Assembly (NCBI GenBank): GCA_046597055.1
Contig: JBKJLC010000117.1
Coordinates: 1 to 14,869, forward strand
Direction of reading: 5' to 3'
Origin: Kofleriaceae bacterium
Lineage (GTDB): Bacteria; Myxococcota_A; Polyangia; Haliangiales; Haliangiaceae
Length of the DNA stretch: 14,869 nucleotides
The position numbers were made by a program, and so were the translations under genes. The notes under the pieces are model-generated. The model worked only from the letters and a program-made list of their open reading frames with translations, had not been told where the DNA came from and did not search any database. This document shows positions 1 through 13,671 of the stretch, in pieces. How positions within the stretch are numbered: the stretch's first letter is position 1; each line of letters opens with the position of its first letter.

Positions 1-669
1 GGGTCGCAGGGCCAGGCCTTCGTCGGGCAGGGCCAGGCGATGGTGGGGGGAGCGCAACAGCAAGCTCAAGGAGCGCAAGGGTTCATGCAGCAAGGACAGC
101 CAGGAGCACCCGGGGCCCCCGGTGGACCACCGGGAGGCATCAACCCCAACCCGCCCATCATGACCAAGGGGTTCTGGATCTTCGCCAAGAAGTTCTGCAC
201 CCAGTGTCAGCAGGAGCTCGACAAGACGTGGCCCCAGTGCCCGCACTGCCAGCATGCGGCCGCCCAGGCGGCGGCGGCGGCCGCGCAGGCCGCGGCCAAC
301 GCCAAGCCCGCGCCCAAGACGCAGGCGTTCATGATCAACACCGGCGGCGGCGGCGGCGGCGGTGGTGGCGGCATGCAGATGGTCGGCTGGCTGATCCCGC
401 TCGCGGGCGGTCAGCGCGGTGAGCTGTTCACCCTCGGATCGCAGACGCTGATCGGCACCGACCCGGGCAGCTGCAACCTCGTGCTGCAGGACAAGTTCAT
501 GTCCTCGAAGCACGCCGAGATCAAGGTCGAGGCCGGCGTCTGGATCCTCAAGGATCTGCAGTCGACCAACGGCACTTACGTCAACGACAAGCGGGTCGAC
601 AAGCAGGAGCTGGTCGACAACGACTTCGTCAAGTTTGGGCAGGCCCTCTGCAAGTTCAAGAGTCTATGA
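1..669 (+). CDS. Zinc-ribbon + FHA domain protein (Gln/Gly/Pro-rich N-terminus); probably 5'-partial
   Basis: Frame is open from base 1 (GSQGQAFVGQGQA-M40), so the true start may be upstream. Contains CTQC-x10-CPHC zinc ribbon, poly-Gly linker and C-terminal FHA motifs (VGWL, IGT, SSKH, DLQSTNGTYVN, VKFG). Stop overlaps next ATG (ATGA, 666-669). Confidence 0.85.
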   Translation, partial: GSQGQAFVGQGQAMVGGAQQQAQGAQGFMQQGQPGAPGAPGGPPGGINPNPPIMTKGFWIFAKKFCTQCQQELDKTWPQCPHCQHAAAQAAAAAAQAAANAKPAPKTQAFMINTGGGGGGGGGGMQMVGWLIPLAGGQRGELFTLGSQTLIGTDPGSCNLVLQDKFMSSKHAEIKVEAGVWILKDLQSTNGTYVNDKRVDKQELVDNDFVKFGQALCKFKSL

Positions 670-2360
670 GTCGTCCGGATCGTCGCCATCGGTCGAGCCG
701 CATCGTCGCTGCCGCGCTGGTCGCGATCGCGTCCCTGGTCGGTCCCGCCGCGCCCGCGTTCGCCGACGAGCTGGCCTGGCAGGTCGTCGAGACCCTGCCG
801 GGCGAGCCGACCGAGAAGGACAAGAACCCGCCGCCGATGATCAAGATCAAGGTGACGGGCGAGGTCGCGCCCAAGCCCGAGGACGCCGCCAAATTCTTGC
901 TGCGGCAGACCGACGTGCGGATGAAGGGCGTCCCGCCCATCGGCTCGCTGGTCGTCCCGTACCACAAGTCCAACGAGACGCTCGGCGTGGTCGTGCTGGT
1001 CGAGGGGCACCAGTACTACTTCGGGAATGACAAGTACGTCGAGGACTCGGCCGCGTGCGGCGCCGGCGGCGATCCCAACGCGCCGTGCCGGATCGTCAAG
1101 AAGGCGGCCGGCGTCTACGACACGATCGTCGCTGCGCTCGACGCGCCCGGCGCCAAGGACGACGAGACGCCGTCGACCATCTCGCGAGCGGGGCCCAGGT
1201 CGGGCTCCAAGGGCGCGCTGATCGTCTACAGCGCCGGCGCCGACATCCGCTACCCGATGGGTGACCTCGCCCAGCTGACCGGCGACAAGCTCGGTGCCCA
1301 GGAGCTGCAGAAGAACAAGACCAGCCGCGAGCTCTCGGTCGGCCTGCGCGAGGCCTACATCCAGCTGAAGAAGGCGAGCACCAGCCGCAAGGTGATCTTC
1401 CTCATCAGCGACGGTCACGACGACAGCGCCGGTGGCGCGGAGGAGATCCGCGCGATCAAGAAGCAGCTCGACGCCGACAAGATCGACGTCTTCGCCTTCC
1501 ACCTCGAGTCGGACCCCCAGTACTTCGCCGACGACAACAACCAGACCGTCAAGACCTCGCACAAGTCGAACATGCTGGCGCTGGCGGGCAGCCCGACCAA
1601 CCTGTTCAAGCCCAAGGACGCCGCTGACCTCGCGCTCAAGATCGCCGCGGCGGTCTCGGGCTCGATCAACAACCGATACTGGATGACCTTCCCCGGCCAG
1701 GTGGTCGATCCCAAGACCAAGGTCAAGGCGGGCTTCACGTGGGACGAGAAGGAGCACGAGCTCATGCTCGAGCGCGACGGCGCCGAGCTCAGCGAGAAGC
1801 CGGCCCTGGTCGTGCTGGCGCCGAAGTGGGGCCAGGCGAAGGGCGGCTCGCTGTGGTGGCTGTGGCTCGCGATCCCTGGAGGCGTGCTGCTGCTCGGCGT
1901 CCTGATCCTGCTGTTCACCGGCAAGAAGGAGCCGGCGCCGATGCCGATGCCCATGCCGATGCCGATGCCGATGGCGGCGGCGCCACCACCGCCGATCCAT
2001 GCCGCGCCGGCGCAGTCGAACAAGACGATGGCGATCAACATCTCGAGCGGCGATGGCGTGCCGGTGGTCGGCTGGCTCGTGCCGATCAACGGACCGCAGT
2101 CGTTCCAGACGTTCAAGTGTGTCGCCGGGGTCACCAAGGTCGGGAACACCCAGGGTGCCCACATCGTGATCAACGACGGGTTCATGAGCGGCGATCACGC
2201 CCACATCGCCATGTCGCCGAACGGCTTCACGTTGGTCGACAACAACTCGACCAACGGCACGTTCGTCAACGAGCGCCGGGTGCAGCGTCACGAGCTCATC
2301 GACAACGACGTCATCAAGTTCGGCAAGACGGACTGCAAGTTCAAGACGATCCTGGGTTAG
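666..2360 (+). CDS. Single-pass membrane protein: signal peptide, vWA-like exported domain, TM helix, Pro/Met linker, cytoplasmic FHA
   Basis: Sec-type signal (RIVAAALVAIASLVGPAAPAFA|D). vWA-like beta/alpha pattern (LGVVVLVE, ALIVY, RKVIFLISDG, IDVFAF). TM LWWLWLAIPGGVLLLGVLILLF followed by GKKE. FHA motifs SGDH, STNGTFVN, IKFG. FHA call is solid; vWA call is moderate. Confidence 0.85.
   Translation: MSRPDRRHRSSRIVAAALVAIASLVGPAAPAFADELAWQVVETLPGEPTEKDKNPPPMIKIKVTGEVAPKPEDAAKFLLRQTDVRMKGVPPIGSLVVPYHKSNETLGVVVLVEGHQYYFGNDKYVEDSAACGAGGDPNAPCRIVKKAAGVYDTIVAALDAPGAKDDETPSTISRAGPRSGSKGALIVYSAGADIRYPMGDLAQLTGDKLGAQELQKNKTSRELSVGLREAYIQLKKASTSRKVIFLISDGHDDSAGGAEEIRAIKKQLDADKIDVFAFHLESDPQYFADDNNQTVKTSHKSNMLALAGSPTNLFKPKDAADLALKIAAAVSGSINNRYWMTFPGQVVDPKTKVKAGFTWDEKEHELMLERDGAELSEKPALVVLAPKWGQAKGGSLWWLWLAIPGGVLLLGVLILLFTGKKEPAPMPMPMPMPMPMAAAPPPPIHAAPAQSNKTMAINISSGDGVPVVGWLVPINGPQSFQTFKCVAGVTKVGNTQGAHIVINDGFMSGDHAHIAMSPNGFTLVDNNSTNGTFVNERRVQRHELIDNDVIKFGKTDCKFKTILG
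1938..1973 (+). repeat. In-frame hexanucleotide repeat (CCGATG)6, one unit CCCATG, encoding (Pro-Met)6
   Basis: Read directly: ccgatg ccgatg cccatg ccgatg ccgatg ccgatg. Confidence 0.9.
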
Positions 2361-2369
2361 GCATCGGAG

Positions 2370-2831
2370 GTGTCGACGCCGGTCCTGGTCCTCATCGTCG
2401 TCGGGTCGGTCGTCGTCCTGGGGCTGGTGCTCGTGCTGATCGTCCGCGCCGGCACCAGGAAGGCGCCAGCGCGGGCGTGCCCGCACTGCCGGGCCTCGCT
2501 GATGCCGCAGTGGGATCGCTGCATGTTCTGCGGCTGGGCGCCGGCGGCGCGGCTCGACTTCATCCTGGGCCCGCTGGCCGGCCAGAGCGTGGAGCTGCGC
2601 GAGGACGTCACCACCGTGGGCTCGGTGGCCGGCAACACGATCGTGCTCGCCGACCCCGCGGTGTCACGCAAGCACGTCGGCATCCGCCGGCTCGAGAACA
2701 GCTACGAGGTCGCCGACCTCGGCTCGACCAATGGCATCTACGTCAACGGCCATCGCATGCCGAAGAAGACCCTGACCGCCGGCGACGTGATCCGTGTCGG
2801 CAACAGCGAGCTGGTGTTCCGCCGCGACTGA
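2370..2831 (+). CDS. N-terminal TM anchor + zinc ribbon + FHA domain protein
   Basis: GTG start immediately after GGAG. Hydrophobic VLVLIVVGSVVVLGLVLVLIV, then CPHC-x10-CMFC, then FHA motifs VSRKH, DLGSTNGIYVN, IRVG. Confidence 0.85.
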   Translation: MSTPVLVLIVVGSVVVLGLVLVLIVRAGTRKAPARACPHCRASLMPQWDRCMFCGWAPAARLDFILGPLAGQSVELREDVTTVGSVAGNTIVLADPAVSRKHVGIRRLENSYEVADLGSTNGIYVNGHRMPKKTLTAGDVIRVGNSELVFRRD

Positions 2832-12732: not shown

Positions 12733-12770
12733 GCCCTTCGACTCCGCGCTTCGCGCTTCGCTCAGGGCGA
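12733..12770. repeat. Solo REP-like palindrome GCCCTTCGAC...CTCAGGGC
   Basis: gcccttcgactccgcgcttcgcgcttcgctcagggcga; same CCCTTCGAC..CTCAGGG motif as the arms of units 1 and 2. Confidence 0.7.
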
Positions 12771-12846
12771 CCGGGTGAGCGGGTGAGCGGGTCGTGACGA
12801 AATGGGGGGGACCGGCCAACGACGCAGCCGAGGCCCGCAGCCGCGG

Positions 12847-13671
12847 CTAGTAGGCGGGTTGCTGGTAGCCGTAGTGACCCACCGACGCCGCCCACAGGGT
12901 GTCGACGAAGGCCTGGGCGAGCACGACGGTGATGTTGTCGGAGCCGCCGTTGTTGTTGGCGGCGCGGACCAGGTTCTCGGCGGTGACCTCGAGCGGGTCG
13001 CCGGCCGTCATGATCTCGCGGATCATCCAGTCGTCGACCAGATCGGACAGGCCGTCGCAGCACAGCAGGTAGACGTCGCCGTGCTCGATCGGCAGGGTGT
13101 TGTGCTCGATCTCGACGGCGGCATCGAGCCCGACCGCCCGGATGATGACGTTGGAGGTCGCCGGGCCGAGCTGGCCGATGAGATCGGGCCGGTCCTGGTA
13201 CAGGTTGCGCAGCGAGTGGTCGCGCGAGAGCGGGTGGAACTGGCCGTGGCGCAGCAGGTACGCGCGCGAGTCGCCGCAGTGGCAGATGTGAAGGGTGTTG
13301 CCGTCGACGCGGAGGCCGACCACCGTGGTGCCCATGCCGTGACACGACGGGTCCTGCTGTGCGCGCTGGAACACCGCCGCGTTGGCGGCCTTCATCGCGA
13401 CCGCCAGCGGGTCCATGCCGGGGCCGGGCGCCGGGTCGTTGGTCTTGAGCGCGTGCACGATGGTCCGGATCGCGAGGTCCGAGGCGACCTGGCCCGACGC
13501 ATGACCACCCATGCCGTCGCACACCAGGTACAGGCCGAGGAAGTCGTCGTAGTACATGGCGTCCTCGTTCTGAGTACGCTGCACGCCTACATCGGTCAGG
13601 CCGACCGTTCGCATCACGTACCGATCGATCGGCACGACGCGAGGCTCGCTGTTGCTCTCGGTGCCGTTCAT
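12847..13671 (-). CDS. PP2C/PPM-family Ser/Thr protein phosphatase (Stp1/PrpC-like)
   Basis: TDVG..R..NED, VCDGMGGH, GMGTT, HCGDSRAY, DHS, NVIIRAVG, LLCCDGL, GGSDNITVV. GAGG lies 5 nt before ATG 13671. Confidence 0.95.
   Translation of the reverse strand: MNGTESNSEPRVVPIDRYVMRTVGLTDVGVQRTQNEDAMYYDDFLGLYLVCDGMGGHASGQVASDLAIRTIVHALKTNDPAPGPGMDPLAVAMKAANAAVFQRAQQDPSCHGMGTTVVGLRVDGNTLHICHCGDSRAYLLRHGQFHPLSRDHSLRNLYQDRPDLIGQLGPATSNVIIRAVGLDAAVEIEHNTLPIEHGDVYLLCCDGLSDLVDDWMIREIMTAGDPLEVTAENLVRAANNNGGSDNITVVLAQAFVDTLWAASVGHYGYQQPAY

Follow-up and report, generated by a model that had tools for sequence, protein, structure and literature searches.

Described systems closest to the locus

Phage-tail-derived contractile injection systems (CIS) are known in several forms, and we compared these with a locus of a Kofleriaceae bacterium of the order Haliangiales (GenBank assembly GCA_046597055.1). 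The stretch analyzed here, which we call the window, is contig JBKJLC010000117.1 of that assembly (14,869 nucleotides, positions 1 to 14,869 of the forward strand); it encodes five forkhead-associated (FHA) proteins, a Ycf46-type AAA+ ATPase with two small partners, and a PP2C phosphatase, and we read it as the accessory part of a CIS cluster. Judged by gene content alone, the locus fits subtype IIb of the lineage II extracellular CIS (eCIS) as defined in PMC6899500. Shared with that subtype are a tube, a sheath, an Afp7-like protein, split gp27/gp5 genes, gp25, a single Afp11 (baseplate J), Afp12/13-like genes, a terminator, and DUF4157, and the absence from the locus of PAAR and of a recognized tape measure. 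The locus differs in its ATPase, which is of the Ycf46 type accompanied by DUF1257 and DUF2997 rather than of the WHD-AAA type, and in its five FHA proteins, membrane vWA proteins, kinase, PP2C, and lipoproteins; the term FHA is absent from the main text of PMC6899500.

Among solved structures, the sheath of our locus is closest to that of Streptomyces coelicolor (437 bits, sequence shared with 9GTP), followed by those of Halogeometricum borinquense (410 bits, 9EZM) and PVC (198 bits). The nearest characterized sheaths thus belong to systems described as engaging the producer's membrane (PMC12237407, PMC11566945). The S. coelicolor CIS is cytoplasmic, and its firing in Streptomyces is described as requiring a bitopic membrane protein, CisA (PMC12237407); it is of subtype IId, is self-directed, and lacks a fiber in most loci, whereas our locus has a diderm host, a fiber, and a large dispersed set of DUF4157 genes. 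The membrane-bound CIS of H. borinquense likewise has no tape measure and carries DUF4157 cargo (PMC11566945). The same source proposes Cis12/Cis13 as membrane contacts; the system differs from ours in its proposed anchor, a protein with six transmembrane (TM) segments, and in its host, a monoderm archaeon, and the account given there reports no phosphothreonine (pThr) module.

Regulation of the kind suggested by our locus is described for the threonine-phosphorylation pathway of type VI secretion (the T6SS), in which a contractile tail is served by a membrane kinase (PpkA), a PP2C (PppA), an FHA scaffold (Fha), lipoproteins, an outer-membrane anchor, and a TssK-like baseplate protein (PMC3953482, PMC12607579). 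A predicted membrane Hanks kinase, a PP2C, and a canonical FHA protein are all encoded beside contractile tail genes here as well. The differences are that the sheath of our locus is a one-chain, phage-type protein, that its kinase has a TM tail and no periplasmic domain, that its vWA domains sit on the FHA proteins, and that neither TssL/DotU (PF09850) nor VasE/TssK (PF05936) has a family match in the host genome (94% complete), TssK having a structural analogue only, the fiber protein c11. The CIS is consequently not a canonical T6SS. A first-pass annotation of the window, made from its letters, had recognized no T6SS, Tad/Kil, T3SS, or Agl-Glt, and this judgment holds: no component of Tad/Kil, T3SS (SctD), or Agl-Glt had a full-length match in the locus, and the YscD and GltG models match the FHA domain only, GltG far below its cutoff.

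A Ycf46-type ATPase with small partner genes also occurs in a three-gene operon of cyanobacteria and plastids, which the text of bioRxiv 10.1101/2025.07.21.665879 describes as stress-induced, giving neither a CIS link nor a molecular substrate; S. elongatus has DUF1257. In the part of the PMC8213781 supplement that we covered, DUF1257 appears in one eCIS locus, without enrichment, and DUF2997 in none. Phage-tail clusters with a highly transcribed tube gene and a suggested role in predation are reported from uncultured Myxococcota, in seamount metagenome-assembled genomes (PMC11937823); FHA, AAA, DUF1257, and DUF2997 are not mentioned for these eCIS-like clusters in the text and two supplements of that study. 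PVC-type toxins of Haliangium ochraceum are among those listed in PMC3482391, and the occurrence of a CIS in the Haliangium lineage is therefore not in itself new. In a literature search that took in few subscription papers and no dbeCIS tables or bioRxiv supplements, we found no description of an eCIS-type tail accompanied by either the Ycf46 triad or FHA/kinase/PP2C genes. The kind of CIS is known; the apparently new element is the combination of an eCIS-type tail with FHA/kinase/PP2C regulation and the Ycf46 triad.

The window within a CIS cluster

The window is an entire contig (C61) of the host genome (G000; 8.4 Mb, 72% GC, 94% complete, 7.6% contamination), and both of its ends cut genes. 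Gene calls confirmed the arrangement described in the first-pass annotation, with 12 genes on the plus strand, stop/start overlaps at 666 (ATGA) and 11744 (TGATG), and a convergent PP2C gene, and Pfam confirmed its domain list: FHA in the first five genes (g1 to g5), AAA, DUF1257, DUF2997, eCIS_core (= DUF4157), pentapeptide, TPR, and PP2C. Among the window proteins, g11 and g14 had no family match in Pfam. Gene g1 is truncated in the window, and its beginning is found on contig C74, which terminates in M-F-F-K-K-L-D, the start of gene 1 in a congener. At the far end, the last open reading frame encodes the tail of a Hanks kinase, the rest of which lies on contig C111 together with two predicted lipoproteins, so that the kinase for which the first-pass annotation had advised searching the flanks was found there. 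The contigs share no overlapping sequence, and we deduced their order, C74-C61-C111, from gene continuity and synteny.

Contig C74 carries a Pvc16 terminator, two sheaths, tubes, tail chaperones, CIS_tube, a gpD hub, a gp5 spike, baseplate J, gp25, and the fiber gene (c11). These were called by Pfam on the orthologues of relatives, by tblastn onto C74, and by NCBIfam on the C74 proteins; matches to the CIS12 and CIS13 models fell below their cutoffs. The two sheath genes on C74 are the only ones in the host genome. A 1694-aa protein, which may be Afp6/Cis6-like although no model matched it, ends in a helix similar to that of the DUF4157 protein of the window (g9). With these structural genes on the adjoining contig, the stand-alone undescribed system proposed in the first-pass annotation has to be abandoned, and we are highly confident that the window is the downstream accessory half of a lineage II CIS cluster of Haliangiales.

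To compare gene neighborhoods, we took approximately 40 kb around the Ycf46 orthologue. This gene gave a strong match in 24 relatives, and we used 18 of them, from three families, giving preference to longer contigs. The vWA-FHA gene, g5, Ycf46, DUF1257, DUF2997, DUF4157, the pentapeptide gene, and g11 were present in all 18 relatives. Within the same ranges, c11 was found in 17 relatives, baseplate J with gp25 in 15, PP2C with the kinase in 15, and the lipoproteins in 13. The terminator, both sheaths, the tubes, tail chaperones, CIS_tube, the gpD hub, and the gp5 spike are encoded farther upstream. Because the block from the FHA genes to g11 recurs in all 18, the cluster is not a product of chance. 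An alignment of the fiber protein yielded 235 loci in GTDB representatives, and linkage was counted in the best 80 of these: an FHA gene directly follows c11 in 66 of the 71 loci with enough DNA, Ycf46 lies at most 10 kb from the fiber in 42 of 44 loci, and all 63 loci counted for baseplate J have it upstream.

We then searched 401 Myxococcota genomes for c11 (112 matches, of which 9 partial ones with E > 1e-50 were dropped), DUF1257 (114 matches, of which 11 weak ones with E > 1e-15 were dropped), and Pvc16 (169 matches). The fiber and DUF1257 were both present in 99 genomes and both absent from 294, with four genomes having DUF1257 only and four c11 only; these counts span 24 families, and related genomes are not independent samples. 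A strong DUF1257 match was present in only 3 of the 71 genomes that are positive for Pvc16 and negative for c11, and an orthologous sheath is present in two of the four DUF1257-only genomes (G136 is without one). By these counts, 103 of the 401 Myxococcota genomes sampled, or approximately one in four, carry this type of CIS, including that of the cultured Haliangium ochraceum (fiber orthologue ACY16112.1).

The first-pass annotation had held that the FHA and AAA blocks belong together, which conserved linkage and co-occurrence bear out, and had named unlinked blocks in related genomes as evidence to the contrary. Unlinked blocks do predominate in distant families, the cluster there being split as a rule, but their co-occurrence is almost perfect. 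An alternative explanation for their association is that the FHA/Ycf46 block is an independent signaling or remodeling system that merely lies beside the CIS in Haliangiales and has its ancestry in common with it. That most distant families have the blocks on separate contigs or at a large distance from each other would suit this explanation, as would their location on separate contigs in one member of the window's own family (G018), the kinship of the genomes, and the presence of the triad without a CIS in cyanobacteria. We nevertheless consider it very improbable, given that c11 and the Ycf46 orthologue are jointly absent from two other members of the window's family (G017 and G020), that DUF4157 lies inside the block, that only 8 of 401 genomes are discordant, with a sheath in half of the DUF1257-only ones, and that different families link different sub-blocks to structural genes. 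The distant structural block ends in the fiber, g1, and a vWA-TM-FHA gene in five of the six loci showing the fiber (10 genomes taken), and of 20 distant DUF1257 loci, 17 have g5 immediately ahead of Ycf46. The triad lies one gene upstream of the Pvc16 terminator in G327 and G083, which belong to two other families, and in G122 and G055 it is PP2C with a lipoprotein gene that adjoins the terminator.

Membrane FHA proteins and the kinase

Gene g1 (1..669, plus strand), directly after the TssK-like fiber gene, encodes an amphipathic N-terminus (on C74), a Gly/Gln/Pro linker, a CxxC-CxxC Zn ribbon, a threonine motif (K-T-Q-A-F), and an FHA domain without the conserved Arg; from its sequence, the protein is predicted to be a peripheral-membrane adaptor. 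Gene g2 (666..2360, plus strand) encodes a signal peptide, a vWA-like periplasmic domain, a TM segment, a Pro-rich linker, a K-T-M motif, and an Arg-less FHA domain, and g4 (2862..4451, plus strand) is its paralogue, found in only part of the family. The description of these two in the first-pass annotation as vWA-TM-FHA proteins stands for the FHA domain and for the one signal peptide-like and one TM segment in each; the vWA domain is less secure, with a degenerate first MIDAS motif and a weak Pfam match in g2 (E 0.005, below cutoff) and no Pfam match in g4. Gene g3 (2370..2831, plus strand) encodes an N-terminal TM segment, a Zn ribbon, and an FHA domain with G-S replacing G-R, and in distant families a g3-type FHA domain is fused to a vWA-TM protein. 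The sole canonical FHA domain (G-R, S-R-R-H, N-G-T) is that of g5 (4645..7272, plus strand), where it precedes a Gly/Pro-rich linker and a coiled coil of approximately 400 aa. Five FHA domains are therefore present as claimed, but not five canonical pThr readers: the G-R is kept in all 56 orthologues of g5 and in none of g1 to g4.

A strict K-T-M/Q pattern occurs just ahead of the FHA domain in 66 of 67 orthologues of g1, 10 of 14 of g4, and 16 of 60 of g2, and is rare in g3 (2 of 61) and g5 (4 of 56). The kinase linker on C111 has three occurrences of a similar K-T pattern, and the kinase tail of the window has one, compared to a proteome rate of 0.42 per 1000 residues. Judging from sequence patterns, these motifs may be phosphosites. 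An invariant K-T in one alignment (A4) was discarded as circular, the rows having been picked by the K-T motif.

The kinase belongs to a convergent unit with the order lipoprotein-lipoprotein-kinase-g14-PP2C. Its C-terminus occupies 14524..14869 (minus strand) of the window and consists of a Pro/Gly-rich linker, a K-T-M motif, and a tail TM segment; the catalytic domain is on C111 (L129:3913-5352) and has DFS instead of DFG, as seen in 1 of the 87 kinases matched by motif in the host genome. The genome also has 80 FHA matches, and cross-talk with other kinases is possible given these numbers. The exact DFS signature was found in 25 of the 401 genomes, 23 of them fiber-positive and 2 fiber-negative, and it failed as a phylum-wide marker. 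The PP2C gene (g13, 12847..13671, minus strand) is the last of the unit, and catalytic motifs are intact in its product as they are in the Ycf46 and DUF4157 proteins. The remaining gene of the unit, g14 (13736..14512, minus strand), encodes a protein of no family whose profile weakly resembles (probability 42%) that of the gene following DUF2997 in distant families.

The Ycf46 triad

Gene g6 (7348..8973, plus strand) encodes an AAA+ ATPase in which the Walker A/B, sensor-1, and Arg-finger motifs are all preserved, and its nearest solved relatives are Cdc48/p97/VAT. The name Ycf46 is an assumption that follows the first-pass annotation; no Ycf46 model matched. The ATPase gene adjoins g7 (8987..9394, plus strand), which encodes DUF1257 and which we presume to be Ycf35, and g8 (9425..9646, plus strand), which encodes DUF2997. 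For DUF1257, a KA1/TBP-like helix-grip fold was predicted by a weak match: the model (pLDDT 83) had its best Z score, 6.4, to KA1 domains, which is below the reliable level, and gave no match in Foldseek. An atlas search with DUF1257 returned its own family only; none was found in viral contigs, and a phage collection gave three weak matches. We set aside five distant Ycf46 copies (35 to 49% identity) with none of the cluster's genes nearby. One locus (L100, genome G134) has a reordered triad, DUF1257-DUF2997-ATPase, at 45% identity and without FHA genes, and is apparently of a separate type.

The fiber and the candidate cargo

The fiber gene c11 encodes 511 aa, and its model (pLDDT 81, pTM 0.39) has T6SS TssK as its best match (E 6e-6). 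Residues 1 to 314 align to IglD (Z 10.4, root-mean-square deviation [rmsd] 11.8, 231 aligned). The head of the fiber is 46 to 53% identical to those of four genomes from distant families, compared to 44 to 47% for baseplate J, and is therefore comparably conserved; eCIS fibers are reported to carry diverse binding modules (PMC12923769), unlike this head. Complex prediction of the fiber neck and head with the FHA domains of g1 and g3 gave a score of 0.00, which is evidence neither for nor against contact. In genomes of one family (f60, e.g., G227:C49 and G351:C65), the fiber gene also occurs in a second full-length copy, which is more divergent.

Gene g9 (9709..10350, plus strand) encodes a stand-alone DUF4157/eCIS_core protein (HELTH) with a conserved C-terminal helix and no toxin domain. 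Elsewhere in the host genome, on other contigs, there are 30 DUF4157 matches, 4 WHD-AAA (PF22977) matches, and 1 PAAR, and one WHD-AAA gene lies approximately 4 kb from a DUF4157 gene. We take the WHD to be a mark of Afp15-like ATPases.

A cell-anchored, phospho-triggered system as the preferred reading

Our preferred reading, to which we assign a probability of roughly 55%, is that the locus encodes a cell-anchored, phospho-triggered, and recycled CIS whose accessory proteins act as dock, switch, and motor. The observations comprise the genes present, their linkage and co-occurrence, residues, and predicted folds; the steps from docking to recycling are all ones that we infer. In the T6SS, TssK docks on TssL/M. 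By analogy, g1 to g4, with their periplasmic vWA domains, TM segments, Zn ribbons, and Arg-less FHA domains, would build an inner-membrane platform that docks the TssK-like fiber and the baseplate. The two lipoproteins and the vWA domains may sense contact or envelope damage and so activate the tail-anchored kinase, which would phosphorylate the K-T-x motifs just ahead of the FHA domains of g1, g2, and g4 and in its own tail. Binding of the phosphorylated motifs by the canonical FHA domain of g5 would license assembly or firing, and the PP2C would reset the switch. Ycf46, recruited by g5 and with DUF1257 and DUF2997 as adaptors, may dismantle the contracted sheath or the dock, a ClpV-like role. 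The cargo would be the DUF4157 proteins scattered over the genome, probably loaded by the separate WHD-AAA ATPases.

We favor a cell-anchored system because the membrane vWA-FHA genes travel with the fiber gene, because the cytoplasmic kinase/phosphatase/FHA switch parallels that described for the T6SS (PMC3953482, PMC12607579), because the nearest characterized sheaths are those of membrane-engaging systems, and because, besides the putative loaders, there is also a Cdc48-like ATPase. Several points weigh against it. The FHA Arg is found in 0 of 67 orthologues of g1, 0 of 60 of g2, 0 of 61 of g3, and 0 of 14 of g4, with Ser, His, and Asn retained; in T6SS Fha, that Arg is a pThr-binding residue, and its single mutation in Agrobacterium is described as lowering but not abolishing secretion (PMC3953482). 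Because the exact DFS signature is confined to 25 of 401 genomes, Haliangiales are the only group for which a dedicated kinase is shown. The Ycf46 triad occurs without any CIS in the S. elongatus control. The TssK-like fold is no proof of anchoring because it is described as general in eBAP3 eCIS fibers (PMC12923769). No outer-membrane channel was identified, and the mode of action of a CIS is reported not to be reliably predictable from sequence (PMC12998442). Two further features suit the binding of a target surface: the fiber head is CBM35/CBM6-like (Z 11.2 to 11.5, rmsd approximately 2.8, 123 aligned), and a Tail_P2_I baseplate protein carries an N-terminal PASTA fusion (L127:1755-2618 on C74).

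These last two features would also be expected of a released extracellular particle, for which the window genes would control assembly, cargo loading, or release, the fiber head and PASTA domain would bind target glycans or peptidoglycan, and Ycf46 would be a loader like Afp15/Pvc15. DUF4157 is an eCIS marker (PMC8213781), Pvc15 is described as loading cargo (PMC11495950), and no canonical Afp15-type ATPase lies inside the locus. We regard a released particle as unlikely, though less so than the other alternatives, in view of a fiber head as conserved as core baseplate proteins, membrane FHA genes that remain beside the fiber gene even in split loci, and four WHD-AAA genes available elsewhere, one of them near a DUF4157 gene. 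No lysis genes were noticed on C74, C61, or C111, by inspection only and with no dedicated search.

The S. coelicolor sheath being the closest solved one, the system could also be a cytoplasmic CIS of the Streptomyces kind, recruited under stress to the membrane of its own cell, where it would trigger development or a regulated death of the cell; the pThr module would then be the stress sensor. The CisA-dependent CIS of S. coelicolor is described as killing its own cell (PMC12237407), and the cyanobacterial ycf46 operon is described as induced by severe stress. The spread of 30 DUF4157 matches over many contigs suggests an outward arsenal instead, and DUF4157 proteins are reported to be secreted by the membrane-bound haloarchaeal CIS (PMC11566945); we consider a self-directed system distinctly unlikely.

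The system is a candidate weapon for predation or competition in abundant predators, and the conflict role that the first-pass annotation proposed is likely. An eCIS-type tail is here joined to regulation of a kind so far described for the T6SS, which bears on the repeated evolution of membrane-anchored firing, and the Ycf46/DUF1257/DUF2997 triad becomes testable against a visible substrate, the sheath. A more tentative proposal, which we hold to be possible but do not favor, is that the locus represents a separate class of cell-anchored contractile weapon, found in at least 24 Myxococcota families, in which a T6SS-like trigger evolved independently, with a dock of Arg-less FHA membrane proteins and a switch made up of the kinase, the PP2C, and the coiled-coil FHA protein, and in which the Ycf46 triad is the equivalent of ClpV. 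If so, the Ycf46 family would gain its first concrete substrate, and the triad of cyanobacteria and plastids would by implication be a Cdc48-like disassembler of membrane-bound complexes.

Remaining genes and further observations

Three genes follow g9 on the plus strand. Gene g10 (10390..11070) encodes a pentapeptide-repeat protein, and g11 (11103..11744) encodes a protein of no known family with a conserved N-terminal region of approximately 100 aa and a conserved C-terminal tail of the RFSLLELD type; an atlas search with g11 gave no matches, and five distant loci have g10 and g11 joined in a single gene. Gene g12 (11744..12205) encodes a TPR protein. A scan for promoters and terminators gave results at chance level. 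In RNA data, one metatranscriptome gave a match (share 0.05), with relatives represented by short contigs. Between the convergent TPR and PP2C genes, at 12285-12775, lie two tandem copies of a REP/MITE-like palindromic repeat of approximately 210 bp, related copies of which match 124 contigs of the host genome.

Among the structural genes on C74, a conserved 61-aa Zn-ribbon gene (L127:6227-6412), kept in distant families, lies between the spike genes and gp25. A tube gene of double length (292 aa, L128:8797-9675, C74:20196-21074), whose orthologue in G019 has two gp19 stretches, stands where distant families have a single tube of approximately 143 aa. Five genomes of distant families (loci L108 to L120; G339, G433, G304, G368, and G270) showed no gp5 spike gene in the interval from gpD to gp25, and the spike may be encoded elsewhere. 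In two relatives (L072 and L077; G005 and G019), translations point to a type II secretion-like cluster 10 to 20 kb upstream of the CIS.

Elsewhere in the host genome, an orphan gp5/VgrG-like gene (L130, C39:54988-55728) and an orphan CIS_tube-like gene (L131, C4:8738-9301) each lie near a kinase gene. An orphan island at C98:19523-25864 encodes PAAR and a 714-aa DUF4157 protein, and similar genes are found inside the structural locus of G029.

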